Positions 940-63,716 of a stretch of 64,000 nucleotides of DNA are shown here, piece after piece. The DNA lies in NCBI GenBank assembly GCA_963698025.1, contig OY969112.1:1861200-1925199 (forward strand). Direction: 5' to 3'. This DNA comes from an uncultured Acidobacteriota bacterium (GTDB lineage: Bacteria; Acidobacteriota; Thermoanaerobaculia; Multivoradales; UBA5704). The first letter of the stretch is position 1; every line of letters starts with the position of its first letter. The notes below the pieces were generated by a model. It saw nothing but the letters and a program-made list of their open reading frames with translations, did no database searches and was not told the origin of the DNA. A program made the translations under genes and the position numbers.

Positions 940-1370
940 GTCAAAGAGCCCGAAACCGTTCCGCGGGCTTCATTCCCCATCGCTCGAGCCTCATTCCCCA
1001 GGCCCCGAGCCCATTCCCCAGCGCCGGCACCCCATTCCCTGCGGGGAACGGAGCGCGAACGCCCCGCCGTATCGCATTCCCCACCCTTCGCCTCCCGCGA
1101 ACGCCGGGGAACGCTTCATTCCCCCGGCAAACGGGATCCTGGCAACGGGGAACGCCTCGCGCTCGCTCATTTGTATCATGCACATTACAGGGAACGGCTC
1201 ATTCCCCCTGGGGAATGTTCCGTGAACGCCGGGGAATGGGTCATTCACTCGCTCTTCCTTCTCGTTCCCCGGGGGGAAAGCGGCCCGACTCCCGGGGAAT
1301 GCGTCACGCAAACCACTCCGGAAGCCCCAGGCGCCCCCTCCAGGCGTCCTCCAAGACACCGCGGACCCGC
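940..1370. repeat. Array of at least 12 CATTCCCC / GGGGAA(T/C)G half-site repeats, several arranged as inverted repeats (GGGGAA-N7-TTCCCC, TTCCCCGGGGGGAA)
   Basis: Read directly in the sequence. The region is non-coding and lies upstream of the minus-strand Fe-S subunit gene and of a strong promoter at 1382. Confidence 0.55.
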
Positions 1371-1381
1371 GCTGAAGAGGC

Positions 1382-1410
1382 TTGACAACTCGTTCCCTGG
1401 TCTCTATTAT
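1382..1410 (+). promoter_or_regulatory. Near-consensus sigma-70 promoter (TTGACA, 17 nt spacer, TATTAT)
   Basis: TTGACA is at 1382-1387, a 17-nt spacer follows, and TATTAT is at 1405-1410. No convincing ORF lies downstream before the terminator. Confidence 0.4.
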
Positions 1411-1416
1411 ATGTAC

Positions 1417-1614
1417 ATCATCGTCATCTGTCCAGAGGCCTCCCACGAGGCGCTCCGCGGGCGGCGAAAGGGCCGGGGATGACCACGGATCGAAGGACTC
1501 CGCCGTCGTCGAGACCGCGGTCCGGCGATTCTCCCGAGGAACGGCCCGAGCTCTTGAACAATCGAAGCACCTTGCCGGGGGAACGGGAGCGGGGCCGTTC
1601 CCTCCGGCTTTTTC
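1417..1614 (+). ncRNA. Candidate ~200-nt small RNA bounded by a consensus promoter and an intrinsic terminator
   Basis: The transcript is predicted from the 1382 promoter to the GC hairpin plus U-tract at 1577-1614. The overlapping ORFs read through the terminator and are low-complexity. Confidence 0.3.
1577..1614 (+). terminator. Rho-independent terminator-like hairpin (GGGGGAACGG ... CCGTTCCCTCC followed by GGCTTTTT)
   Basis: A perfect 8-bp GC-rich stem with an 8-nt loop is followed by a T5 tract. Confidence 0.45.
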
Positions 1615-2255
1615 GTCGGGGTTCGCAGACCAAGGCTGGCCCGGTCGGACCGGTGCACCTAACGGAAACGGCCGGAGTTCCGAGGATGCCTGGAAAGTAG
1701 AGGTAGCCCTGCAGGAGCGGCGGTTGAGCAGCCTGGACTTCAAACCCAAGGTAGGGCCCAGCCCGATCCCCTCAAGCTTCCCAAGAGGGTGGCTTATCGC
1801 GGAGGATCGATTGCCCTTCGGGCCTGAATGATTCTGCGACTGGGCGATTGCTACGGACCGAGTTACGCCTCCGCTAGGCCAGGCGTTGGGGCCGTCTCCA
1901 AGGCTTCCCAAGCAAGGGTCGAGATCTTTGACAAGCGAAGTCCCTGGGCTGGTGAACAGGTGGGGCGTTACTTCTGCCCTCCCTCTGTCCACTACATATT
2001 ACAAGGCGACTACCCCGCATTCCTGCTTATTGACGGGTAGCGCTACAGGCTGTAACATTGTTTCTTCCATAAGAGAAACGCGTTGTGTTGACCTCGCTTA
2101 CCACCATATCTCTGCCTTACGGCGAGATGCAGTTATAGCGGAAGCTGCCTAACAGACAACCCAAGCGGTCGGCTTAACGTCAGTCATAAGATTATCCGTA
2201 CGAGAGGGCACACTCTTTGCACAAACCACGCATTCGCCACTCTGAAAGGAAATTA

Positions 2256-5200
2256 TTGATCCCGCATATCAAACTTTATGCGGCGATTCTGCTACTCGCT
2301 CTTCCAGCATTGGCACAAACGAGCGGCCTCCCTACATTTCCCAAGCGCTCTGGATATTGGATGAAGCCTATCTCAGAGCAGCTCGGCGTGTGCGATGGCG
2401 GCTCAGTGGCTTGGGCGCAAAGATCGGGGGATCAATATTCAAAGGAACTCGAACTCGTCGACAACGTCGGACGAGTGGTTAACCGATGGACTTTCCCCCT
2501 CTCAATTCGGGATTTTTATCGCACATCTAATTGCACCACTTCATGGGTTCTTTCACGAGATCGTCGCCATATCTTCATTGTAAACAGCTTAACCGATCGG
2601 GAACCCATACCTCTCGCCAATGGGAATGGGATAGATGAAGTACGGCGACTCATTCCAGCTGACGACGGGAGCTTCGCCTGGGTCTATTTCGAAACCCGCA
2701 AACCAGACATCGCTATTGCCATTCGGAGCCCTCAGGGAATCGTATTGCAGGAGATATCAGGGATTCCACCCGACCTGGAGAGTCAAGATTATTCCGCCAT
2801 AGCACAAGGTAAACGACTCCTGGCTATACCCGTCAGAGGAGTAGGGATCTACTTCATAGAGGCGTCGGGTGCCCACAACATTAGCAAGAAAGATCTTTCT
2901 AATGTTTATAGTACTAACACAGGAGAATTGGCTTGGCTTATACCCAGGCTCGATAAGGGCGTATATCTCGTCGATGGCACCGGTCGCCCTCTTAATCAGG
3001 GCGCGCCTTTACTGAAAGATGAGGACGTAGTCCAGGTCTACTCGCGTTTCCGCGAGAGAGACTCGTATGCCTGGGTGCGAACCCAGAGCGATAGACTGTA
3101 CGCATTTGCGCCGATAGAAACTCCTCAAGGTTGGGCGATTCGGCCTCTCAACCATGGACATCCGGTGGCAATCGGCGCACAAACTCTCGCGGTAGATCTC
3201 GCCAGAGTAATTGGTTCAGGGCGAGTGGCTTGGGTGACTTCACAAAGCCGCTTTGCTCCGCCAGGTGCATGGGGAGATATTTATCGTGTCGAGGTCCAAG
3301 GAGACGACATAGCAGTGTCTTCGGTGCCGCGTCAGTACTTTGAAGGTAAGTCCGTCAACACTCTTTTTTGGGACCTTGAAAACCCTTGGCGCTTCTGGGC
3401 CAGGAGCCCAGACCTGTGCCTCTATGAAGTAAGACTACATCCCCAGGGAAAGTCTGAACCTGGTACGGAAGCAGAGCCTGCAAAGGTCTTTGACCACCAC
3501 TCTTCCTGTGTGCTTGTGGAGCAAATTATACCGAGCGGAATTCCTAGTCGATATTGGATCAATGCGACCCCCTCATATTATCTCATGGGGCCAGCCAACG
3601 ACATAACTGAAGCCATAGTCAGCCTGGGGCATGCCAGATTGAGCCTCAAGACCCCCAGAGGGCATCGACTACGCTTCGCAATGCGTGAAGGCTCTTCAAT
3701 CCATGCCAGCCTGAACTGGCCTACCCGTGATGACCATCTAATGGACATGAACCCTGAGACGTCTCGGGAGCGTCCGCGGATCCATATAACGTTCCTTGAC
3801 CCTAGGGATCATCAATCCACTCCTCGAGCCGAAGGTGAAGGGTTCGCAGACAAGGGAGAAGCCAGCATCCTTCTACACACGAACGGAAGCTCACATTGGA
3901 ATGAGACCTATGATATTCAACTTGAATATCACGATCCGCAGACACTGACCAACTTTCGGATACTTTGGCCTGGAGTGACTCTCGCTCCAACATTATACGA
4001 GTTGGTTACTGCGAGCCCTTACTGGAAAGCCCTGTGGCTCCTCGCTCTTCCCATCTTTGCACTACTGCTCGCCATTAATAAGAGTTGGCGGGTTCGACGC
4101 TGGATTCCAGTAGCCGTATCAGCAATTGAGGTACTTATAGCTAGCCGACTCCCAGAACCGATCAAGACAACCCCCTTAGAATTACTTAGCGTCGCAGCAT
4201 GCTGCTCCCTTACAATGCTCCTAGCAGGCCTAGCCTCTCCAGCTTTATTCCGTGAGCTTGCATTGATTCAGCCGTTCCGTCTTCTAGTACCTGCCGCGCT
4301 TCAGTTGCCGCGCTTGCGGCGCCGGGTATGGAAGTCCTACGTAAAAAATGTCCGCATGCTTCTGCAAATTTTTCGAGAAGACGCAAGTAACGAGACCTAC
4401 GTCCCTCTGGCCACTTCGGTAGTTGGCAGCCGACCACCACAAGGATCTTCGGTCGGCTCACAAGCTGACGTGAAAAGCATCGTAACTGTTCTCTCCGCTA
4501 AAGATCCACAACACAGAGCTACTATCCTGATAGAGGCTCCAGGTGGCCGTGGTAAGAGTGCACTCTGGAACGAGCTTTTGGCACGCTGCCTGGATGCTTT
4601 TGAGAATGATCCGCTATGCCCTCTTCCAGTGATTGGTGACCCTCGATGCAGTACTGTAGAGTCGATGGTTGAGTCTGGACTTGGCCGTTTTGGCATCTCG
4701 CCGGACATAACTGCGGCGCAACTAAAGTCCGGCGAGTTCGTTGTCTTCATTGACAATTTGAGCAGCTGTGACCTAGCACCAGCTGATCTTGAGACCTTCT
4801 TTAGAGCTGGCGGGGATAAAACTCGGCTCTGCTTAACCAACCGACCTGATAAAGAATGGCGCGGGCCCGTACGCAGGGCTGACACGTGGATCATTGTTGA
4901 ACCGGAACGACTATCTGATTCTTCTATTTGGGGCTTCGTCGACAATTATGCAATTACTGATGCCATACGAATGAATCGAGATGCAGAGTCCTATACCAAA
5001 CTGGTCAGAGAGAAAGTGGAGAAGTTCCTACCCATCTGCCGCTCAGAGGATGGTTCTTACCTACCACTCTTGGTTCGGCTTTGCACATTGGCCATCGAGC
5101 GTGATATTAGTTCTATTGATGATATTTATCTGAGCGCATTAAGGCGCTTATTAACCCGAAAAGATGCCATGAGCAATCTCGATGTCGAGCGGGTTCTCGT

Positions 5201-5843
5201 CGAAGCAGAGCAAATTGGCATTGAAACCTACTGGCACGAGCACGATCGGCTCTTCCGGTTCGAGCGCACAACACCGGAGCGTACGCAAATAATGCGAGAA
5301 CTGCTCCAAGCAGGCGTAGTAGTGGGGGCAGATCGCACCAAGAGGCTAAACGAGGAGCCCAAACAAGTTCGTTTCTTTCACGACTCTGTTCAGTCCTATC
5401 TTGTTGCACGAGGTCTCCACCGGGCGGGCGATTGGGAATGCTTTCTCCAAGCCGCTGGCGATCCATTCTTCTGCCGAGCGGCTTCGGATTTTATCGGTGG
5501 CACAGGGTCAGAATTATTTCAGATGTGTCTTTATGTTTTTGAAGCAAGCCGTGTTCGCCGACATCTGATCGAAGATTTGCTGAGTTGGGCGGGATGCTAT
5601 TGGGCCACCCTTTCGATTGATGATGTACTCGTCGGATTAACCGAGGAATCGCAAGCCGCAGTTGAAAGGCGTATCTCCACCCTAGTCGGAGCAGGTGAGT
5701 ACCTGCGGATTGCCGTGGAGGTGGTTGCTGCAGAGGACATGCAAGAAGACGGCACTGTTCGACTTGGTCGACTTTATGCAAAGCTTGCCCCAAAAGTGTG
5801 GCAACGAACTTGCGTTGAGGAGAATCGCAACGAAGTTGCTTAA
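2256..5843 (+). CDS. Large membrane-anchored STAND-class (NACHT/NB-ARC-like) P-loop NTPase with an N-terminal periplasmic domain; low-GC, probably horizontally acquired
   Basis: The most plausible start is TTG 2256, with an AGGA ribosome-binding site 5 nt upstream. Alternative starts are TTG 2217 and ATG 2359. A signal peptide (IPHIKLYAAILLLALPALA-QTSG) leads into roughly 560 aa of periplasmic sequence. Two to three transmembrane helices follow (WLLALPIFALLLAI ... SVAACCSLTMLLAGLA). The cytoplasmic part has a Walker A motif APGGRGKSAL, a Walker B motif FVVFIDNL and a TRLCLTNR sensor-like motif, then about 500 aa of helical sequence. GC content is markedly lower than the flanking DNA. Confidence 0.8.
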   Translation: MIPHIKLYAAILLLALPALAQTSGLPTFPKRSGYWMKPISEQLGVCDGGSVAWAQRSGDQYSKELELVDNVGRVVNRWTFPLSIRDFYRTSNCTTSWVLSRDRRHIFIVNSLTDREPIPLANGNGIDEVRRLIPADDGSFAWVYFETRKPDIAIAIRSPQGIVLQEISGIPPDLESQDYSAIAQGKRLLAIPVRGVGIYFIEASGAHNISKKDLSNVYSTNTGELAWLIPRLDKGVYLVDGTGRPLNQGAPLLKDEDVVQVYSRFRERDSYAWVRTQSDRLYAFAPIETPQGWAIRPLNHGHPVAIGAQTLAVDLARVIGSGRVAWVTSQSRFAPPGAWGDIYRVEVQGDDIAVSSVPRQYFEGKSVNTLFWDLENPWRFWARSPDLCLYEVRLHPQGKSEPGTEAEPAKVFDHHSSCVLVEQIIPSGIPSRYWINATPSYYLMGPANDITEAIVSLGHARLSLKTPRGHRLRFAMREGSSIHASLNWPTRDDHLMDMNPETSRERPRIHITFLDPRDHQSTPRAEGEGFADKGEASILLHTNGSSHWNETYDIQLEYHDPQTLTNFRILWPGVTLAPTLYELVTASPYWKALWLLALPIFALLLAINKSWRVRRWIPVAVSAIEVLIASRLPEPIKTTPLELLSVAACCSLTMLLAGLASPALFRELALIQPFRLLVPAALQLPRLRRRVWKSYVKNVRMLLQIFREDASNETYVPLATSVVGSRPPQGSSVGSQADVKSIVTVLSAKDPQHRATILIEAPGGRGKSALWNELLARCLDAFENDPLCPLPVIGDPRCSTVESMVESGLGRFGISPDITAAQLKSGEFVVFIDNLSSCDLAPADLETFFRAGGDKTRLCLTNRPDKEWRGPVRRADTWIIVEPERLSDSSIWGFVDNYAITDAIRMNRDAESYTKLVREKVEKFLPICRSEDGSYLPLLVRLCTLAIERDISSIDDIYLSALRRLLTRKDAMSNLDVERVLVEAEQIGIETYWHEHDRLFRFERTTPERTQIMRELLQAGVVVGADRTKRLNEEPKQVRFFHDSVQSYLVARGLHRAGDWECFLQAAGDPFFCRAASDFIGGTGSELFQMCLYVFEASRVRRHLIEDLLSWAGCYWATLSIDDVLVGLTEESQAAVERRISTLVGAGEYLRIAVEVVAAEDMQEDGTVRLGRLYAKLAPKVWQRTCVEENRNEVA

Positions 5844-6133
5844 ATCACTCCGGCACCCGGGGCAGAAAGATCCAGTGTGAAGGCTCATGGGAAGCCAATC
5901 ATGGATTCCGGTCCTGCTCCAGCTCTCAGCCTGCCAGGTTCCGTGGTGGCTCAAGGGCCAACACCGTGCGGGCAAGGGTACATTGTCGCATTGAACCAGG
6001 GAGTACGTAACGCTACAGACGCGGCGGGAGGACACCCCAACGCTGAACGGCAGAAGAACGGTCAGCCAAAGGGAGTCCTCCTGAGCGCGATCAGATTATT
6101 TTCACTCATCACGATCATAGGCTCGGTGAGTGA

Positions 6134-6250
6134 CAGAGCCTGCAGCATGTGACCGACGGTAGCTATGTTAATAGCCATCTTGACGACACGGTTTATCGTC
6201 CCGGCCCAACAGAGTATCATTGTGCGACCTACGACTGCGGGAACGCCTGA
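6134..6250 (+). pseudogene. Decayed paralog of the RiPP precursor at 9211: the core peptide is retained and the leader is degraded
   Basis: It encodes ...VTDGSYVNSHLDDTVYRPGPTEYHCATYDCGNA. Precursor A encodes ...VTGGAVNSYINDTVYRPAPTEYRCATDGCGYA. There is an in-frame stop immediately upstream and no leader or start codon. A conserved downstream module of about 90 bp is shared with the 9377-9470 region. Confidence 0.45.
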
Positions 6251-6399
6251 TCCTCCTGCCGGGAGTGGACCGGTGACCCACGAATAGCTCCCTTCCGATC
6301 CGGCGAAGGTCGTGGATCGGCGAAACGCCCCTCCTCCGACCTTCGCCTCTGTCACGAATTCGATCCCTGCAAGGATTAGAGCGTCCCTGCCGTCGCGGC

Positions 6400-7633: not shown

Positions 7634-8016
7634 CATGGCCGCGCGGCGAGATCTCGAGCGTCGGGTCGACGGCCGAAGCGCTGGAGCTGTTCGGCGAGCG
7701 AACGGGAGCGTTCGAAGCGAGCTATCGGCAGGCGATCACGCCGGTGCTTCGCCTCGGCCGGTGGACGGCGGTTTGCACCATCTATAACGGGAACCTTCCG
7801 GACCCGCGGCAGGCACGGACCGCCCGGGTGGCCCTGATGTTCAACGATGTGATCTTCAGGGTCGCGCTCGAGCATCGGCTCCCGGTCATCGACCTGCGAC
7901 TCGTCTGCACAGAGCCCGAGGATTACGCCAATCCCATCGAGCCCTCTGGACGTGGAGGCGCGAAGATCTCCCGCGCCATCGCTCAGGCGACAGGCATCTC
8001 GAGCTCTCCGGTCTGA
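7634..8016 (+). pseudogene. Possible 3' remnant of an SGNH/GDSL-type hydrolase gene
   Basis: A C-terminal-like segment (...VIDLRLVCTEPEDYANPIEPSGRGGAKISRAIAQ) resembles the D-x-x-H block region of SGNH hydrolases, but the His is replaced. There is no N-terminal part, and the upstream region is occupied by the start of the DUF2911 gene. Confidence 0.25.
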
Positions 8017-9097: not shown

Positions 9098-9210
9098 AGG
9101 ATCGACACGCGCACAGGCCGCGAGCCCCTCATTTCGCGGGAGACTCACCGCTTCTCGCGTGTTACAGTTTTGCTTGCGCCGATGGACGGCGTTCAAGAAG
9201 GAGGTTCGAC

Positions 9211-9375
9211 TTGAAGAAGCAGACGAAGATCCAGAAGCTCGTGCTCAAGAAGGAAACGATGGTCAGCTTGCAGGATGTGACCGGCGGCGCTGTTAATAGC
9301 TATATCAACGACACGGTTTATCGTCCCGCCCCGACAGAGTATCGGTGTGCGACCGACGGCTGCGGGTACGCCTGA
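9211..9375 (+). CDS. RiPP / bacteriocin-like precursor peptide A with a double-glycine leader (54 aa)
   Basis: The ribosome-binding site AAGGAGG is 7 nt upstream of a TTG start. The leader is LKKQTKIQKLVLKKETMVSLQDVTGG and the core is AVNSYINDTVYRPAPTEYRCATDGCGYA. The leader motif is shared with the peptides at 54515 and 57872. Confidence 0.6.
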   Translation: MKKQTKIQKLVLKKETMVSLQDVTGGAVNSYINDTVYRPAPTEYRCATDGCGYA

Positions 9376-9501
9376 TCCTTCAGGTGGCCGCCTCCGGATA
9401 GTTCCTTCCGATCCGGCGAAGGTCGTGGCAAGAGCCGGCGAATCGCCCCCTCCGACCTTCGCCTTTATCCACCCTTCCGAACGGCAGGCCGCGAGGGGCC
9501 G

Positions 9502-18243: not shown

Positions 18244-20118
18244 TCACCATCCGCACTTCTGGCCCTGGTTCTGCTGGTCGAGCCAGGTCTTCAGGGGGGC
18301 GAAGTAGTCGCTGATCGCGCTGGCGTCCATCTGCCGCTGGCCGGTGACGACTTCGAGGGCGTCGGGCCAGGGGTGGCTGGCGCCCATCTCCAGCATCTTG
18401 GCGAGGCGGGCTCCCGCCTCCTTGTTGCCGTAGATCGAGCAGCGGTGCAGCGGGCCCTTGTAGCCGGCCGCCTGGCAGAGCCCGCGGTGGAGCTGGAACT
18501 GGAGGATGTCGGCCAGGAAGTAGCGCATGTACGGCGTGTTGGCCGGCACGTGGTACTTCGCGCCCGGATCGAAGTCGGCCTCCGAGCGGGCGACCGGCGG
18601 CCGGACCCCCTGGTACTTCAGCCGCAGGTCCCACCAGGCCTGGTTGTAATCGGCGGGCGTGACCTCGCCGGAAAAGACCTTCCAGCGCCACTGGTCGATC
18701 AGCAGGCCGAAGGGGAGGAAGGCCACCTTCTCGAGCGCCTTCTTCATCAGCAGGCCGATGTCCTTGGACTCGTCGGGCACCTGGTCGATCAGCCCGATCT
18801 GCTTCAGGTACTCCGGCGTGATCGACAGCGCGATGGTGTCCCCCACCGCCTCGTGGAAGCCGTCGTTGGCGCTGTCCTGGTAGAGGAACGGCAGGGTGTC
18901 GTAGGCGCGCTGGTAGAAGTTGTGCCCGAGCTCGTGGTGGACGGTGCGGAAGTCCTCGTCGTTGATCTTGACGCAGACCTTGATCCGCAGGTCGTCCTTG
19001 TAGTCGATGTCCCAGGCGCTGGCGTGGCAGACGACGTCGCGGTCCTGCGGCTTCTTGAACAGCGAGCGCTCCCAGAAGGTCTTGGGGAGCGGCGCGAAGC
19101 CCAGCGAGACGAAGAACTTCTCGCCGTACTTGACCATCCCGACCTCGTCCACCTTCTTCTCCTGCAGCACCTTGGTCAGGTCGTAGCCGGGGTCGGCGCT
19201 GGGGGGCGCGACCACGTCGTAGATCTGGTCCCACTCCTGCGCCCACATGTTTCCCAGCACGTGGGCCGGGATCGGCTGGTCGAGCGGCACGACGGCGTCG
19301 CCGTACTTCTGGTTGAGCCGGGCCCGCACGTAGCAGTGGAGGGAGTCGTAGAGCGGCTTGAGCTGACCCCAGAGGCGGTCGAGCTCGGGGCCGAAGGCCT
19401 CGGGCGCCATGTCGTACTTGGCGCGCCAGAGGACGCCGGTGTCCTTGTAGCCCAGCTCGCGGGCCCCCTGGTTGGCGATCTCGACCAGCCGGGCGTAGTC
19501 GGCGCGCATCGGCGGCGAGATCTTGTGCCAGCCGACCCAGGTGTCCAGCAGCTCCTTGGGGTCGCGGCTGTTGCGCATGATGTCCTCGACGTCGGGCAGG
19601 CTCTTGCACTCGCCGCCCCCCGGCGGGCAGTACTTGCCGGCGCCGTACTGGGCGTCGAGCGAGGCGGCGAGGCGGGAGAGCTCGGCGTTCTTTTGGGGAT
19701 CGGCGGGCGCCGGCAGCACCAGAGTGCGCTTGAGCAGCTCCATCTGGCGACGCAGGTCGGCAGGGAGCTCGACGCCGTCGAAGCGGGTCGCCTGCTTGGC
19801 GAGGTCGACGGACACGCCGGTGAGCACCTCGTTGCGCGCGGCGGCGAGGATCTGGGTGTCGTCGGTGATGAAGTTCTCCTGCACCCACCCGGCCCGGCCG
19901 GCCTCGACCGCGAGATCGAACAGGCGCTTCTGCGCGCCGTCGAGGAACTTCCTGGCCTCTTCGGCGGTCGGCTTCGCGCTCGCCCTCGATGCGGCCGGCC
20001 TGGCGGCGGTTTTCTTCTTTGGCGCGGCCGCCGCGGGACCGGCCGCGAAGGCCAGGAGCAGCCCGGCACCGGCGAGGAGCGCGGCGGTACGGCGGAAGGA
20101 AAGGAACGAATTCTTCAT
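18244..20118 (-). CDS. Peptidase M2 (angiotensin-converting-enzyme-like peptidyl-dipeptidase), secreted
   Basis: The start is ATG 20118, giving the signal peptide MKNSFLSFRRTAALLAGAGLLLAFAAGPAAAA. A HEXXH zinc motif (HHELGHNFY) and ACE-like downstream blocks are present. The remainder of the 1684-aa ORF is an artefact. Confidence 0.9.
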   Translation of the reverse strand: MKNSFLSFRRTAALLAGAGLLLAFAAGPAAAAPKKKTAARPAASRASAKPTAEEARKFLDGAQKRLFDLAVEAGRAGWVQENFITDDTQILAAARNEVLTGVSVDLAKQATRFDGVELPADLRRQMELLKRTLVLPAPADPQKNAELSRLAASLDAQYGAGKYCPPGGGECKSLPDVEDIMRNSRDPKELLDTWVGWHKISPPMRADYARLVEIANQGARELGYKDTGVLWRAKYDMAPEAFGPELDRLWGQLKPLYDSLHCYVRARLNQKYGDAVVPLDQPIPAHVLGNMWAQEWDQIYDVVAPPSADPGYDLTKVLQEKKVDEVGMVKYGEKFFVSLGFAPLPKTFWERSLFKKPQDRDVVCHASAWDIDYKDDLRIKVCVKINDEDFRTVHHELGHNFYQRAYDTLPFLYQDSANDGFHEAVGDTIALSITPEYLKQIGLIDQVPDESKDIGLLMKKALEKVAFLPFGLLIDQWRWKVFSGEVTPADYNQAWWDLRLKYQGVRPPVARSEADFDPGAKYHVPANTPYMRYFLADILQFQLHRGLCQAAGYKGPLHRCSIYGNKEAGARLAKMLEMGASHPWPDALEVVTGQRQMDASAISDYFAPLKTWLDQQNQGQKCGW

Positions 20119-20183
20119 CGAAATTCTCCGCAAAAGGTCATGGATCGCGCCGCGAGTATACCGGACCGGGCCGGCGGTGCCGT

Positions 20184-21371
20184 CTAGCGCGCCAGCGCGG
20201 TGGCGATCCGTGCCAGCCCCTCGGCGAGGGTGGCGCGCGAGCAGGCGAAGGAGAGACGGATGTGGTCGTCGGCGCCGAAGGCGGCGCCGGGCACCACCGC
20301 CACGGCCGCCTCCTCGAGGAGGTACTCGGCGATCTCGACCGAGCTCGCCCGCCCGGGACGGAAGCAGGCGGAGACCTGGGGGAAGGCGTAGAAGGCGCCG
20401 TGGGGCGGGCGGCAGCGGAAGCCGGGGATGGCGTTGAGGGCGTCGGCGACGATCGCGCGCCGCGCCCGGTACTCGGCGATCATCACCTCCACCTCGGGCT
20501 CGGCGTGGCGTAGCGCCGCGAGGGCCCCCACCATGGCGAAGGAGGTGGGGTTCGACGTGGCATGGCTCTGGATCTTCTCGACCGCGCCGATGACCGGCGC
20601 CGGCCCCAGCACGTAGCCGATCCGCCAGCCGGTCATCGCATAGGTCTTCGAGAACGATCCAACCATCACCACGGTCTCGGGAAACTCGGCGGCGAGCGCG
20701 GCGGCGCTGGCGGGGGGCTCGTCGTAGACGAAGCGCTCGTAGGTCTCGTCCGAGATCACGATCAAGCCGTGCTCGGCAGCGAAGGCGACCACCCGCCGCA
20801 GATCCTCGGCGCCGATCACGCCGCCGGTCGGGTTGCAGGGGGAGTTGAGGAGGATCGCCCGGGTGCGGCCGGTCACCGCCTCGAGCAGCGGACCGGCATG
20901 GATGCGGAAGCCGTCCTCGACCGCGGTGGGCACGGTGACGGGGCGGGCGCCGGCGAAGAGGATCTGCTCGGGGAAGCTCACCCAGCAGGGGGAGGGGAGG
21001 ACGACCTCGTCCCCCGCCTCGAACAGGGCGAGCGCCAGCTGGAAGAGCGCCGCCTTGCCACCGACGGTGACCACCGAGTCGGCCCCCTTCCAGGGGGAGC
21101 CCCAGCGGTCGCGGCAGGAGTCGGCGATCGCCGCCCGCAGCTCGGGCAGGCCGCTGCCGGGGGTATAACGGGTGAAGCCGTCGGCGAGGGCCTGCCGCGC
21201 CGCCTCCACCGCTACTTTGGGCGAGGAGAAGTCGGGCTCGCCGGCCCCGAGGTCCATCAGGTCGACACCTTGGGCTTTGAGCTCCGCGGCACGGCGGGTC
21301 ACGCGCAGGGTGGCGGATTCGCCGATCGCGGCGGCACGGGCGGATAGTTTCACGGGGGTGGATCGTATCAT
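20184..21371 (-). CDS. Class I/II pyridoxal-phosphate aminotransferase (aspartate aminotransferase-like)
   Basis: The start is ATG 21371 (MIRSTPVKLS). The PLP lysine region is SFSKTYAMTGWRIGY. Confidence 0.9.
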   Translation of the reverse strand: MIRSTPVKLSARAAAIGESATLRVTRRAAELKAQGVDLMDLGAGEPDFSSPKVAVEAARQALADGFTRYTPGSGLPELRAAIADSCRDRWGSPWKGADSVVTVGGKAALFQLALALFEAGDEVVLPSPCWVSFPEQILFAGARPVTVPTAVEDGFRIHAGPLLEAVTGRTRAILLNSPCNPTGGVIGAEDLRRVVAFAAEHGLIVISDETYERFVYDEPPASAAALAAEFPETVVMVGSFSKTYAMTGWRIGYVLGPAPVIGAVEKIQSHATSNPTSFAMVGALAALRHAEPEVEVMIAEYRARRAIVADALNAIPGFRCRPPHGAFYAFPQVSACFRPGRASSVEIAEYLLEEAAVAVVPGAAFGADDHIRLSFACSRATLAEGLARIATALAR

Positions 21372-54159: not shown

Positions 54160-54320
54160 GGGATTAGCAGGCTCCGCTGTTGCAGGTAGTAAAAGTCCCG
54201 CAACCGATGACGGTGGCCCTCCCGCGACCTGTTCGAGGCCGCTTTCGAGATTGATCAGGGTCTCCTCCTTCCCCAGTACCAGCTTCTGTCCCCGGCGGTA
54301 CAACGAGCAACATGCGGCCC
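54160..54320 (-). pseudogene. Relic of a fourth GG-leader precursor peptide, disrupted by frameshifts
   Basis: On the minus strand, one frame reads QKLVLGKEETLINLESGLEQVAGG, which is leader-like. A second frame, shifted +2, continues as ATVIGCGTFTTCNSGAC followed by a stop, which is core-like. The only ATG is in the core frame. Confidence 0.35.
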
Positions 54321-54514: not shown

Positions 54515-54652
54515 ATGAAGAAGGCGAGCGTGAAGAAGATGGTGCTGAACAAGGAGACGCTACGGGGCCTGGAGCCCTCCTCGCTTGAGCAGATCTTAGG
54601 CGGGATGGATGACTCCGGCGCGCAAACCTGCCTGAACGCTGGCTGCTTATAA
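54515..54652 (+). CDS. RiPP / bacteriocin-like precursor peptide B with a double-glycine leader (45 aa)
   Basis: The ribosome-binding site AGGAAGGA precedes the ATG. The leader is MKKASVKKMVLNKETLRGLEPSSLEQILGG and the core is MDDSGAQTCLNAGCL. Confidence 0.6.
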   Translation: MKKASVKKMVLNKETLRGLEPSSLEQILGGMDDSGAQTCLNAGCL

Positions 54653-54800: not shown

Positions 54801-55007
54801 ATGAAGAGAAAGATGCTCGCCCTCGCCATCCTGCTCGGAGCCACCGTTTTCGCCTCCTCGGTCCCCCGTGCCGAGGCTACGTTCTCTTCCGAATGCGGTG
54901 CCCCCTTTTGCAGGTACACGAGCACCGTGTGCTACTGCTCGGCGAGCAGCGAGCACCCGGGCTGGGGAACCACCTGCGGCCAGTGGAAGATCGTGTGTTA
55001 CCAGTAA
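54801..55007 (+). CDS. Small secreted Cys-rich protein (68 aa, Sec signal peptide, 8 Cys)
   Basis: The ribosome-binding site is AAGGAGAG. The signal peptide MKRKMLALAILLGATVFASSVPRAEA is followed by the mature part TFSSECGAPFCRYTSTVCYCSASSEHPGWGTTCGQWKIVCYQ. The 3' tail is duplicated out of frame at 55008-55060 (AATCGGWKIACR). Confidence 0.6.
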   Translation: MKRKMLALAILLGATVFASSVPRAEATFSSECGAPFCRYTSTVCYCSASSEHPGWGTTCGQWKIVCYQ

Positions 55008-55924: not shown

Positions 55925-56385
55925 GGCCTTAGAAGGCGTTCATATATACACTTCGTCGATTTTTATATACGCGAGCCTCACCTGGGCATCGGCGGAGGTC
56001 TTCTCTATATACGAATTGCTCCTGGATATATACAAAACACCGCCAATGAGGGCGGCAACCCCGATTTTTGGCGAATCAGCCTCTCCGGAAAGCTCTCCAA
56101 GGTCTCTGGATATATATAAAGCGCACAAAAATAGTGTTCCCGGAGGCTTGCCGACCTTTTTTTGAGGCATCTCTATATATTCGGAGCAGATTTGTATATA
56201 GGATTGGCTGCTTGGACCCCTTCGAGGGGGACTCTGTATATATTTTTTTCCGTTTTATATATAAAAAGAGGCGCCGGAATCCCTGCGAGCCCCTCAAAAG
56301 GCCGAGTCAGGGCTGCCGGAGCTCTCTCCAGGACAACTCCGTATATATTTTCCTGAGCTTTATATATAAAAAAGGCTCGTGGAAT
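55925..56385. repeat. AT-rich TATATA-box array (at least 11 copies), including two ~45-nt palindromic units (GTATATATTTTT..CC...TTTATATATAAAAA)
   Basis: TATATA(C/T) cores occur at about 55933, 55962, 56010, 56027, 56107, 56175, 56198, 56237, 56262, 56344 and 56366. The surrounding genome is about 70 % GC. No credible ORF is present. Confidence 0.7.
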
Positions 56386-56659
56386 GCTCGCGACGCCCCA
56401 TGCGAGCCTCCGAGTGCCGCCTCACCGCCTTCGGCTTCGCCGAATGAGTGCCCGGCCCCTCTTCCCCCGGGAACTGACCGAGGAGATGGCGGAGATCTTC
56501 CGGGCCCGGGACGTCCACCGCGAGACCCTGGCCGCCCTCGCCGTCTTCCAGGCCGCCGCCGCCCTCGACGTCGCCACCGCCGACCTGGCCCGCGATCTCG
56601 CGGCCTACCTCACCCGCGCCCGTCTGGACCCCGAACTGCGCTTCGAGCGGGAGCGCTGA
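56384..56659 (+). pseudogene. C-terminal fragment (about 70 aa) of the zf-HC2/TPR gene family
   Basis: LTEEMAEIFRARDVHRETLAALAVFQAAAALDVATADLARDLAAYLTRARLDPELRFERER is nearly identical to the C-termini of the proteins at 58492 and 60191. The preceding 19 aa are unrelated. Confidence 0.5.
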
Positions 56660-57195
56660 GCCCGCCCGGCTCGGGGAGCCACGTTTCGGTCCCCGACGGC
56701 TCGGCACCGCTGCCGGTTCGACCGGGGTGTCCGTGGCCCGCCGCGACCTCATCCCTATCCCCTTCTCCTAAAAGGAGAAGGGACGTCTCCGAAGCGTGTG
56801 GCCCGTAGGGTGCGCTGTGCGCACCCCGCTCCCCGCCCCCGCCCTGCAAGGGCGGACGTTGCCCAGCCTGGGTGGCAACCCACCCTCTTACATACAAGTC
56901 GCTGATCTTTGGATTCGGCTGCTCAAGGCAGGAATTCCGGACGCCCGCCCGCAGGGCGGATTTATCCAGCCTGGGGTGTCAACCCCAGGAAGGCGGCCCC
57001 AAGATCGACAAGCCCCGCAGGGCCGGCATGTCTTTGCCGATCGAAGCTCCCGTCGGGGTGTCGGCCCTGCGGGGCTTCCAGGGATGGGAGGGCACCCAGT
57101 CCTGGGGTTCGCTGTTCCTCAGGTTCGGTCAGCAGCCTGCTGACCAAGCCGGAGCGGCTAGCGGTCTCTGCCGGCTGGGCCAGGGCACCTTCCGC

Positions 57196-57540
57196 ATGCC
57201 GGTGACGGACAGCTACCAGCGTCGTTGCGCGGTCACGGGAGAGAAGGCCCTGCCGGTCCTCGACGCCGCCCACATCCTGCCGGTCGGCAAGGGGGGCCAG
57301 CACCGCCTCGACAACAGCCTCCTCCTCCGCACCGACGTCCACCGCCTCTACGACAAGGGCTACGTCACCGTCACCCCGGACGGCCACTTCCTCGTCAGCC
57401 GCCGCCTCAAGGACGACTTCGACAACGGCGAGCCCTACATGCCCTTCCATGGCCAGCGGATCTGGATGCCTGGAGACCCGGGGAGCCAGCCGAACCGGGA
57501 GACGCTGGAGTGGCATGCGGAGGGGGTGTTTTGGGGGTGA
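57196..57540 (+). CDS. HNH nuclease family protein (HNH_2 / restriction-endonuclease-like)
   Basis: The motifs are RRCAVTGEKALPVLDAAHILPV ... LLLRTDVHRLYDKGYVTV. The start is ATG 57196 (MPVTDSYQ). The upstream part of the listed ORF is repeat DNA. Confidence 0.7.
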   Translation: MPVTDSYQRRCAVTGEKALPVLDAAHILPVGKGGQHRLDNSLLLRTDVHRLYDKGYVTVTPDGHFLVSRRLKDDFDNGEPYMPFHGQRIWMPGDPGSQPNRETLEWHAEGVFWG

Positions 57541-57671: not shown

Positions 57672-57872
57672 TCAGCAGTTGCAGTTCGTGAATCCGTCGC
57701 ACGACGGACACGTTGCCCAGTCACAATAGGTATAGCCACAGCTATTACAGCCACTCGCTCCAGGGCAACCAGACGTGCCGGGAGGGTTACCACCCTCAAT
57801 CCCACGCAGAGTAGAATCTGTCAAGTTTCGCAATGTCTCTTTGCTTAGAATGAGCTTTCTTACTTTTCGCAT
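57672..57872 (-). CDS. RiPP precursor peptide C: double-glycine leader plus a Cys-rich (10 Cys) Ser/Thr-containing core, lanthipeptide-like (66 aa)
   Basis: The ribosome-binding site GGAG lies 8 nt upstream of the ATG. The leader is MRKVRKLILSKETLRNLTDSTLRGIEGG and the core is NPPGTSGCPGASGCNSCGYTYCDWATCPSCDGFTNCNC. The gene is AT-rich relative to its surroundings. Confidence 0.65.
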   Translation of the reverse strand: MRKVRKLILSKETLRNLTDSTLRGIEGGNPPGTSGCPGASGCNSCGYTYCDWATCPSCDGFTNCNC

Positions 57873-58491: not shown

Positions 58492-59817
58492 TTGGAACAC
58501 CACCACCTGAACCGGGCCGTACTGGAACGCCTCCTGGCCGAGGACCGCACCGAGGACGAGAACCGCAGCCTCCTCCACCTGATCGCCGTCTGCCCGGAGT
58601 GCCGCAAGGCCGGCGGCTACCTACTCGATCTCCACCGGGCCGGCGCCCTGCCGCTCCACTTCGGTCCGGTGGACGTGGCCCTCGCTCTCTCGCGGGCCGA
58701 GGCGCCGCGCCTCTGGGAACGCCTCGCGCGCCACTCCCACGAGCGCCGCCTCGCCCTCGTCCGCACCACCCGGCGCTTCGCGAGTTGGGGACTCTGTGAG
58801 CTGCTCTGCCGGGAGAGCCGGAAAGCCGCCACGGACGATCCGATCCAGACAGCCCAATTGGCGGAGCTCGCCGTGCTCGTCGCCGACGCCCTCGAGGAGG
58901 GCTCGCCCTACGAGGCCGGCTGGGTCTACCAGCTCCGCGCCTTCGCCTGGGCCCATTTCGGTCACGCCCGCAGGATCGGAGGAGATTTTCAGGGAGCGGA
59001 GGAGGCGTTTTCGATGTCTGATCCCTGGTGGGAAGCGGGCGACGAATCCGTGGGAGACGCCCTCGGTTATGGCTTGGACATCCTTGCCTTGAAGGCCTCG
59101 CTTCGCACCGACCAACGCCGCTTCCCTGAAGCCCTGGCCCTACTCGACCGTGCATTCGCCGGATACCTCCACGGCGATCCCGAGTATCGTGACCGGCATC
59201 TGGCAGGTCGGATTCTCGTCAAGAAGGCACATGTCCTCACCCAGTTAACGGAGCCCGTACGAGCGATCCTTGCCCTCCAGGAAGCCGGGAAGCTCGTGGA
59301 CCCCGACCGCGATCCCCGCCTGCGCCTCTGCCTCCGGCACAACCTGCTGGACAACCTGGCGACGGCGGGACGGTTCGCGGAAGCGCGGGATCTGCTGCCT
59401 GAGGTGAAGGCGCTCTGCGGATCGGCCGGGAGCCGTCTCGACGAGATCCGCCTCCTCTGGGTGGAAGGCCGGATCGCGGCCGGACTGGGCGACCGGAGCA
59501 TGGCCCGGCAAGCCTTCGGCGACGCGCGGCGGGAGTTCGCCACCCGCGGAATGAGCTATGACGCGGCGCTGATCTCCCTCGAGCTGGCCGTCCTCCTGAT
59601 CGACGAAGGGGAGACGGCGGAGGTGCGGGAGCTGGCCGAAGAGATGACGGAGATCTTCCGGGCTCGGGACGTCCATCGCGAGACCCTGGCCGCCCTCGCC
59701 GTCTTCCAGGCCGCCGCCGCTCTCGACGCCGCCACCGTCGACCTGGCCCGCGACCTCGCCGCCTACCTCACCCGCGCCCGCCTGGACCCCGAGCTGCGCT
59801 TCGAGCGGGAGCGCTGA
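58492..59817 (+). CDS. Putative regulator with an N-terminal zf-HC2 motif (anti-sigma-factor-like) and a C-terminal TPR-like helical domain
   Basis: The start is TTG. H-x3-C-x2-C is present (HLIAVCPEC). TPR-like repeats occupy the C-terminus. The N-terminal domain is paralogous to the 26666 ORF, and the C-terminal domain is paralogous to the 60191 ORF and the 56384 fragment. Confidence 0.75.
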   Translation: MEHHHLNRAVLERLLAEDRTEDENRSLLHLIAVCPECRKAGGYLLDLHRAGALPLHFGPVDVALALSRAEAPRLWERLARHSHERRLALVRTTRRFASWGLCELLCRESRKAATDDPIQTAQLAELAVLVADALEEGSPYEAGWVYQLRAFAWAHFGHARRIGGDFQGAEEAFSMSDPWWEAGDESVGDALGYGLDILALKASLRTDQRRFPEALALLDRAFAGYLHGDPEYRDRHLAGRILVKKAHVLTQLTEPVRAILALQEAGKLVDPDRDPRLRLCLRHNLLDNLATAGRFAEARDLLPEVKALCGSAGSRLDEIRLLWVEGRIAAGLGDRSMARQAFGDARREFATRGMSYDAALISLELAVLLIDEGETAEVRELAEEMTEIFRARDVHRETLAALAVFQAAAALDAATVDLARDLAAYLTRARLDPELRFERER

Positions 59818-62376: not shown

Positions 62377-62543
62377 GTCCACTCCGAACCGCATGGCACT
62401 TCGCTCTTCCCGCTCCCTCTCCCGCCCCCGTCCCTTCTGGTTCCTGTGGCTTGGGCACCTCCTTGCTTGCCGCTTCTCTATAGGCTAGGATTAAGAAACC
62501 GTTAGATAATTGCTGTTTAGGACAAGTTTCCCAAGCGGGGTTC

Positions 62544-63716
62544 ATGCTGGGGTATCGATTGGACGTTCATAGCACTGTGGTCGAGACTAGATCCGAGGAA
62601 AGAGCGGAGCGTGCTATCGCAGCTCTCGCAGCCGACTGGGAACGCCAAGAAGGCGTGCTGCGGAGATCTCAAGTCGAGAGATTAATCTTGAAGCGTTGTC
62701 TCTCGGTTGAGGAGGGAGTATACGTCTTTAAAGGCTTAGCCCGGCGGGGTATCGAGCTGGAAAACCCGGCCCGCAGCGATTCCACGAACGATGACAAGGC
62801 AACGTATCAAGGGTCCGAACAGAAGGGCGGAATTCTTGCAGAAGAGTTCTTGCCTTATTATTTCTCGCAACGCCTCTTATCTGCTCAAGAGGAGATCGAC
62901 CTCGGTCGAACAATACAGCTTGGTATCCTCGCACGGGCCGACCTCGAATCCGGCTTCGACAGCGACGAGCTTCGTAGCTTCGTCGCTCTAGGTGAGCGCG
63001 CACGGAACCGCCTCATCGAGGCTAATTTGAGGCTTGTCTTTTCAATGGCCCAAAAGTTCAAAGGGCAGACTGGCCTCGACTTAGGAGATCTCGTCCAAGA
63101 AGGCACTCTTGGACTACTCCGTGCAGCAGAACTCTTCGACCCTGACCTTGGCCTTAGGTTCTCGACGTATGCAACGCATTGGATTCGCCAAGGAATATGC
63201 AGGGGCGCGGATAGCTTCGGAGAGACTATTAGGCTACCAGTCCATCGAATGGATAGCATTCGCAAACTTAGACGCGCAAAACGAATCATTTCCATTGAGC
63301 TTGGCCGCCAGGCCACTATTCGAGAGATCGCCGAGGCCCTCGACTGGACACCTGAAAGAGTCGCCTACATTCAGTACTTATCCTCCGAACGGATCGTCTC
63401 GCTAGAGACACCCCTAGATAGCGAGAATAACTTGGTCTGGGGCGATACGATCGAAAGCCCAATACCCAACCCAGAGCAGCTATACATAGAGTCCGAACTC
63501 AGATACTTGATAGGCAACCTTCTCGACACCCTTACACCTCGTCAGCGAGCGGTTCTAATACGTCGATTTGGCCTGAGCAATGGCCACGAAGAGACGCTGC
63601 AAAGGATCGGCGATGACTTTTGTGTCTCTCGGGAGCGGATACGGCAGATCGAGACCAAGGCCCTGAAACGCGCGGCACCGCGAGCCAGATCAATGGGCAT
63701 CGAGCAGTTTCTTTAA
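62544..63716 (+). CDS. Sigma-70 family RNA polymerase sigma factor (regions 2, 3 and 4) with a ~110-aa N-terminal extension; lower GC than surroundings
   Basis: Region 2 is [13 protein letters not shown] ... [19 protein letters not shown], with [10 protein letters not shown] nearby. Region 4 is [23 protein letters not shown]. Confidence 0.85.

Follow-up and report, generated by a model that had tools for sequence, protein, structure and literature searches.

A genuine gene for a small precursor peptide with a Gly-Gly-ended leader, here called peptide A, lies in the 64,000-nt stretch of contig OY969112.1 from an uncultured Acidobacteriota bacterium (Thermoanaerobaculia) that we analysed, hereafter the window. 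Peptide A is tentatively read as a class I lanthipeptide-type precursor that would be matured in trans, and we put the probability of this reading at about 0.45. Judged by its sequence, the leader is of an already catalogued class I lanthipeptide type. The core belongs to a family with a DTVY(R/H/Y)P motif that appears uncharacterised, and the members that could be placed come from Thermoanaerobaculia.

The peptide A gene is considered genuine because its protein is already recorded, has about 40 homologues and evolves as a protein, and because its ribosome-binding site and start are conserved. It encodes LKKQTKIQKLVLKKETMVSLQDVTGG (leader) followed by AVNSYINDTVYRPAPTEYRCATDGCGYA (core), with the stop codon TGA at 9373–9375, and the public record holds an identical 54-aa protein (P0001). 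A word-based search returned nine homologues at 67–89% identity, and a profile search of 1.84 billion representatives returned 32 clusters at E ≤ 0.001. The roughly 40 homologues are each 49–84 aa long and begin, or nearly begin, with the leader, so the leader is not an internal segment of longer proteins, and those carrying taxonomic labels are Thermoanaerobaculia metagenome-assembled genomes. Pairwise dN/dS is 0.12–0.57 for most pairs of the family, and length differences are whole codons only, confined to the first few core residues. AAGGAGG is kept upstream of the start across the aligned relatives, and the start position is shared by them, as ATG in loci L001 and L002 and as TTG in close relatives. 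Spurious open reading frames (ORFs) are common in high-GC DNA, and upstream of the TTG the frame has no stop for 128 codons, which would suit an untranslated chance frame. However, a conserved small-protein family with dN/dS below 1 and in-frame indels, a strong conserved ribosome-binding site and matches to a leader model argue against such a frame, as does the recurrence of the leader motif far above simulation, and we regard a chance origin as very improbable. A regular expression for the leader, applied to the six-frame translation of the window, finds three intact copies, compared with a mean of 0.02–0.09 in second-order Markov simulations, none of which reached three in 200 runs. An earlier note on this DNA had proposed a 54-aa Gly-Gly-leader precursor with a TTG start and paralogs in the window, with the same leader pattern at 54515, at 57872 on the minus strand and in a relic at about 54160–54320 on the minus strand, and a decayed, leaderless copy at 6134. 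All of these were recovered in the sequence.

The leader family is already known, and peptide A is not its founder, because a curated model, a published motif and an enzyme-linked locus all cover the same leader. The model lant_leader_L1a (NF038153, "class I lanthipeptide") was the sole NCBIfam match at E ≤ 10 for the window peptides A to D, scoring 19.9 bits for A (E 6e-4), 26.0 for B and 23.9 for C against a cutoff of 22 bits. Within the peptide A family, 32 of 41 members match it at E ≤ 0.01. An LxLxKx5L motif has been described for the leaders of Bacteroidetes class I LanAs, which often end in Gly-Gly and often have a C39 protease in the cluster (PMC7268733). The LVLKKETMVSL segment of peptide A fits this motif, and its leader closes with V-T-G-G. 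A genome scan revealed a Chitinophagaceae locus (L005) in which two LanB and two LanC genes flank three tandem precursors that have this leader, 58% identical there to residues 6–26 of peptide A. Near-invariant leader positions among the 41 members are K2, K3, K9, L10, E15, T16, L20, V23, G25 and G26. The earlier note had presented peptide A as the founding member of its leader family, a claim superseded by NF038153 and the published motif. Its suggestion of kinship with radical SAM (rSAM)-modified Bacteroidetes peptides is not borne out, as NF038153 alone matched peptides A to D and the one rSAM neighbour, in L012, does not recur.

The cores share a clear layout. A variable start of about 2 to 21 residues precedes (N/D)(D/N)TVY(R/H/Y)P, most of the 41 cores end in (S/T)xx(x)C(A)Tx(x)GC or SD(Y/F)CTRGCP, and the final residue is Ala, Ser or Thr in 38. 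Exactly two Cys occur in 26 members, all of which have a Ser or Thr 2–5 residues upstream of each Cys; this pairing, seen in the sequences, fits two small thioether rings. The corresponding pairs in peptide A are T-E-Y-R-C and T-D-G-C. Four members have one Cys and five have none. The core that defines the family has two Ser/Thr-x2-4-Cys pairs behind DTVY(R/H/Y)P, in the pattern (T/S)xx(x)C-A-T-x(x)-G-C-G-(Y/N)-A, and the G-C-G (window 9360–9372, D-G-C-G-Y-A) is invariant among the nine closest relatives of peptide A in our alignment A2. The lipid II-binding motif of nisin and gallidermin, SxxxCTP(G/S)C (PMC7268733), was considered and rejected for peptide A, which has TEYRC-A-TDGC, with an extra Ala, no Pro and a C-terminal instead of an N-terminal position. 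The SDYCTRGC of some relatives comes close to that motif, one residue short.

Genes for peptide A-type precursors are systematically unclustered, because their contexts vary and no LanB or LanC lies near the gene in the A-family loci fetched. A Pfam scan of essentially all long ORFs of the window found no LanB, LanC, LanM, radical SAM, YcaO or C39-peptidase ABC protein, and no GMC oxidoreductase was found in the window. The Pfam hits are ordinary chromosomal genes, including a Fer2 subunit, DUF2911/TPR, PKD, glyoxalase, DoxX and beta-lactamase, together with GH44, kinases, an FtsW-PBP fusion, ClpB, two-component systems and others. The LanB and LanC of L005, used as tblastn queries against the window and all loci (264 kb), gave chance-level matches only, outside L005 itself. 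The Pfam and tblastn results agree with the earlier observation that genes for maturation or export are missing from the window. Eighteen related peptide genes were located, in L001 and L003 (two copies each), L002, L004, L006–L012 and L017–L020, where L006 is one weak locus and the sole return of a metagenome scan with the peptide A alignment. The A-family loci span ±10 kb around the gene in L001, L017, L018 and L019 and less in shorter contigs. Neighbouring genes include toxin-antitoxin pairs, a transposase, TMEM175, a GDSL lipase and hypothetical genes.

A radical SAM/SPASM gene was examined as a candidate maturase and rejected. Positions 1–647 of L012 encode the C-terminal half of such an enzyme. 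Between its end and the closest relative of peptide A, downstream of it, lie about 220 nt with a long palindrome. Full-length homologues of this enzyme occur in L013, L014 and L016 without an A-like peptide nearby and are paired there with a second rSAM gene and PatA_N/DegV genes, and no rSAM gene is present in the other A-family loci. The adjacency in L012 is thus probably coincidental, at a locus prone to rearrangement.

In the mechanism that we propose, the leader would guide LanB/LanC-type enzymes encoded in trans to peptide A, and these would dehydrate Ser and Thr and close two small thioether rings at the C-terminus. A C39-peptidase ABC exporter (PCAT) would cleave after Gly-Gly while exporting the peptide. 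The same machinery may serve peptides B, C and, if it is intact, D, which combine a shared leader with unrelated Ser/Thr/Cys-rich cores. Thermoanaerobaculia carry lanthipeptide machinery including C39 peptidases (PMC13083261), which makes the lanthipeptide reading plausible for this lineage. Peptide A resembles the Bacteroidota class I lanthipeptides (NF038153, pinensin-related) in its Lys-rich N-terminus, its LxLxKETLxxL and Gly-Gly end, and its short core with Ser/Thr upstream of each Cys; peptides B and C pass the cutoff of the leader model, and the leader is LanB/LanC-linked in L005. In contrast to them, its host is an acidobacterium, precursors of its family never stand beside LanB/LanC in the window or the fetched loci, the DTVY.P element of the core is unfamiliar in that group, and some members are Cys-free.

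Several observations weigh against maturation as a lanthipeptide. Peptide A itself falls just below the NF038153 cutoff (19.9 versus 22 bits). The 64-kb window lacks LanB, LanC, LanM and a C39 exporter, and the A-family loci fetched are without a LanB/LanC homologue in the neighbourhood of the peptide gene. The most conserved element of the core is T35 and V36 within DTVY.P, not Cys. Five cores are Cys-free, and one of the Cys-free members (P0070) has the NDTVYR motif twice. A plain lanthionine model leaves these Cys-free members, P0070 and the conservation of TVY unexplained.

Other readings of the chemistry have to be weighed against lanthipeptide-type maturation. Double-glycine secretion leaders have Gly-Gly at −2/−1, hydrophobic residues at −4 and −7 and a length of 15–30 aa. 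The 26-aa leader of peptide A, with Gly-Gly at −2/−1, V at −4 and L at −7, conforms to this consensus, and its 28-aa mature part with two Cys, in a Gram-negative (diderm) phylum, recalls the PCAT-exported double-glycine bacteriocins and class II microcins. Peptide A might accordingly be left unmodified or carry only a disulfide between its two core Cys, acting as a toxin of that kind or as a secreted signal, and it would then need only a C39-peptidase ABC exporter encoded elsewhere. That neither the window nor the A-family loci fetched show a modifying enzyme close to the gene is in keeping with this, as are weak matches of two family members to the BlpC pheromone model and the cross-species purifying selection on the core, which suits a signal or a toxin with a fixed target. 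However, the best and almost only match of the leader is a lanthipeptide leader model, L1a, whose leader is linked to LanB and LanC in L005; each Cys of the two-Cys members has its Ser/Thr upstream; Cys-free members are unable to form a disulfide; and no exporter or immunity gene adjoins peptide A. We consider an unmodified or disulfide-only peptide doubtful.

The conservation of the core also suggests another class of peptide that is synthesized ribosomally and modified post-translationally (RiPP), in which an enzyme such as a radical SAM/SPASM cross-linker targets DTVY(R/H/Y)P and the leader serves mainly for export. At least 90% of the 41 members keep T35 and V36, more than keep any Cys, T[VL][YFIL] is found in 40 of the 41, and the five Cys-free members include P0070 with its doubled motif, like multi-core RiPP precursors. 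The L012 radical SAM/SPASM gene stands close upstream of the closest relative of peptide A, but its homologues occur in three other contexts without an A-like peptide, the other A-family loci lack rSAM genes, and no leader model for rSAM targets was matched. ThaA and TheA are lanthipeptide-thiazole precursors of Thermoanaerobaculia that are modified by LanM plus a GMC oxidoreductase, TheO, which forms a thiazole at a Cys flanked on both sides by Gly (PMC13083261). Peptide A comes from the same bacterial class, and the G-C-G invariant in its subfamily is the local motif that TheO requires. However, the TheA leader is mersacidin-like class II with its motif at the leader-core junction, sequence similarity between peptide A and TheA was sought and none was found, and neither a GMC oxidoreductase nor LanM is present in the window. 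Another RiPP class is regarded as unlikely. Equally unlikely, in our view, is a dispersed library formed by peptides A to D and served by one promiscuous trans-acting system, with DTVY(R/H/Y)P marking an undescribed modification or processing step. Cys-free members keep the motif, one of them in duplicate; the step could possibly be a second proteolytic trim exposing a dehydrated Thr, or a Tyr/Thr cross-link. Prochlorosins, the class II lanthipeptides of marine cyanobacteria, are the model for a library of this kind, with many dispersed precursors and one promiscuous ProcM. The window precursors are likewise scattered away from the enzyme and combine a shared leader ending in Gly-Gly with unrelated cores, but they carry a class I leader of the L1a type rather than Nif11/NHLP, and the window has only three intact and two decayed copies in 64 kb.

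Neither the leader type nor Gly-Gly processing nor terminator hairpins are new; what is unusual, for a class I-type leader, is that the genes are unclustered. The analysis defines a conserved core family, small at about 30–40 sequence clusters, on a known lanthipeptide-type leader, and there is a modest chance that it hides new chemistry. Since these genes are systematically unclustered, cluster-based genome-mining tools miss them. The trans-acting enzymes, if found, would be candidate substrate-tolerant peptide-modifying catalysts, and the conserved DTVY.P motif is a concrete target for mass spectrometry. Acidobacteriota are abundant in soil and rarely cultured, and their peptide natural products are only now being characterised.

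Table 1. Coordinates of peptide A, its related copies and associated elements in the window.
Feature	Position	Strand	Description
Peptide A coding sequence	9211..9375	+	54 aa plus stop, TTG start
Peptide A leader	9211..9288	+	26 aa, ends in GG
Peptide A core	9289..9372	+	28 aa
Ribosome-binding site AAGGAGG	9198..9204	+	6 nt upstream of the peptide A start; read from the sequence
Putative extended -10-like element TGtTACAGT	9160..9168	+	Inferred; block about 45 nt upstream of the start, kept in relatives
5' untranslated region stem-loop GCGCCG-ATGGA-CGGCGT	9176..9192	+	Directly upstream of the ribosome-binding site; folds at the same position in peptide A and relatives
Peptide A 3' stem-loop	9415..9463	+	11-bp perfect GC-rich stem, followed by UUUAUCC
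5'-truncated pseudogene of an A-type peptide	6134..6250	+	Keeps the leader end QSLQHVTDG and the core SYVNSHLDDTVYRPGPTEYHCATYDCGNA
3' stem-loop of the pseudogene	6302..6347	+	53 nt from the stop of the convergent DUF2911/TPR gene
Stretch of about 5.2 kb without counterpart in related contigs	958..6136		Replaces the promoter and leader of the pseudogene
Peptide B	54515..54652	+	MKKASVKKMVLNKETLRGLEPSSLEQILGG + MDDSGAQTCLNAGCL; ribosome-binding site GGAAGGA; above the NF038153 cutoff
Peptide C	57672..57872	-	MRKVRKLILSKETLRNLTDSTLRGIEGG + 38-aa core with 8 Cys and 8 Ser/Thr; ribosome-binding site GAGGAG
Peptide D relic	54164..54300	-	Leader YRRGQKLVLGKEETLINLESGLEQVAGG and core ATVIGCGTFTTCNSGAC in different frames

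There is a weak case, read from the sequence, that the -10-like element, the 5' untranslated region stem and the 3' hairpin delimit a compact transcription unit of about 290 nt. The putative -10 block reads GTTACAG in L012 and L007 and GCTAAAT in L001 and L002, and a consensus promoter scan made no call at 9160–9168. The 5' stem varies as CGCGCC/GGCGCG in L007 and L019 and CGAGCC/GGCTCG in L001 and L002, which amounts to one in-register compensatory change; its energy z-scores are unremarkable. With a promoter-like element of its own and a terminator-like hairpin, peptide A is probably monocistronic.

The 3' stem-loop begins 40 nt after the peptide A stop, has a 27-nt loop and folds at −41 kcal/mol (z −2.7), with similar values for the copy behind the relic. 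The exact inverted repeat GGCGAAGGTCG...CGACCTTCGCC occurs in the window at 9415–9463 and 6302–6347 only, with 0 expected by chance, and the roughly 90 nt following the stops at 9375 and 6250 align. Among five independent copies, the arms are 95–100% identical, compared with 75% for the loop, 59% for the spacer between stop and stem and 46% beyond the hairpin. The hairpin is found solely behind this gene lineage, in the window, L007–L012 and L019, and more distant family members and peptide B have different GC-rich hairpins right after the stop. Most simply, the stem-loop is read as a terminator or 3' stabiliser that came down with the gene and would have been duplicated along with it. Two results count against this part of our interpretation. 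An alignment of eight copies plus L019 shows no covariation, and since the stem changes (L011, L012 and L019) are one-sided and pair-breaking, it is the conservation of the arms that speaks for the structure. The U-tract behind the hairpin (UUUAUCC) is also weak, so we infer termination there; a terminator scan made no call at 9415–9463, where the 27-nt loop is above the scanner's limit. The conservation of the arms against flanks of about 50%, and the retention of the hairpin by a promoterless relic, could instead indicate an independent element, such as a small RNA, a mobile repeat or a regulatory site. However, the hairpin is not dispersed but lies only directly behind this peptide gene, no Rfam family matched in the window, unrelated hairpins occupy the same place in more distant family members, and its retention in the relic is explained by a recent duplication or by a position 53 nt past the convergent stop. 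An independent element is improbable. Of the earlier description of a special hairpin module shared by the copies ending at 9375 and 6250, the conservation and the sharing hold, but the hairpin behaves as the gene's own 3' stem-loop.

From the alignments, the relic at 6134 is a paralog that has lost its promoter and leader to a 5.2-kb low-GC insertion. An in-frame TGA (6131–6133) stands just upstream of it, and it has neither a leader nor a ribosome-binding site, as the earlier description of a decayed, leaderless copy with a conserved 3' hairpin would have it. Related contigs carry, in order, Fer2, a 578-aa gene, a peptide gene (P0004) with its hairpin, TMEM175, a GDSL lipase, a second peptide gene (P0003/P0002) with its hairpin, and then the convergent DUF2911/TPR gene. 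Intact peptide genes stand at the position orthologous to the relic in L011 and L012, and homology to them starts at 6137, inside the leader, takes in the core and hairpin and reaches into the DUF2911/TPR gene. In the window, Fer2 lies at 44–907, and 870–958 matches the region upstream of the L007 peptide gene. The relic is taken to be truncated by an insertion because the upstream match ends at 958, homology resumes at 6137 and the DNA between is low in GC (0.50–0.53 versus 0.68 over about 2000–6100). The stretch looks like a horizontally acquired insertion. It contains an ORF at 2217–5843 for 1208 aa with a Walker A-like APGGRGKS and predicted membrane segments, which has no match in Pfam, NCBIfam or PADLOC. 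A 3' fragment of a GDSL-lipase gene (7659–8016, plus strand), 95% identical to the intact gene preceding the L011 peptide gene, lies 1.2 kb upstream of peptide A, suggesting that the locus has been rearranged more than once.

The remaining leader-bearing copies, peptides B, C and D, lie in one region of the window, and their cores are rich in Ser/Thr and Cys. Peptide B has a 10-bp hairpin 3' of its stop, and a word-based search returned no homologues of peptide C. In peptide D, the leader frame and the core frame share 1 nt, in a G-run at 54217, and the ATVIGCGTFTTCNSGAC core, which runs to a stop, is Cys-rich. A −1 frameshift or else a homopolymer error accounts for the break. One added G at 54217 restores ...EQVAGG-ATVIGCGTFTTCNSGAC, and peptide D may thus reflect an assembly error rather than a pseudogene. 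Just 3' of peptide B, a 68-aa ORF (54801–55007, plus strand) has the ribosome-binding site AAGGAG, a Sec-type signal peptide and six Cys; it matched no family and could encode an immunity protein or a second secreted peptide.

The region holding peptides B, C and D has further features. A 91-aa ORF (56384–56659, plus strand) is a gene-fragment duplication, nearly exactly repeating the C-terminal ~55 residues of a 441-aa TPR-like regulator (58492–59817, plus strand), and an HNH endonuclease is encoded at 56872–57540. The AT-rich intergenic stretch 55930–56375, in a genome otherwise of 68% GC, contains about 11 TATATA boxes at 20–50 nt spacing with imperfect inverted repeats, an array that might be origin-like, iteron-like or a promoter cluster. 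Elsewhere in the window, a bacterial homologue of angiotensin-converting enzyme (Peptidase_M2, E 6e-227; 18247–20187, minus strand) adjoins a PIN-domain gene, and a sigma-70 family gene (62484–63716, plus strand) lies in a second low-GC segment (about 0.54–0.61) at the window end.

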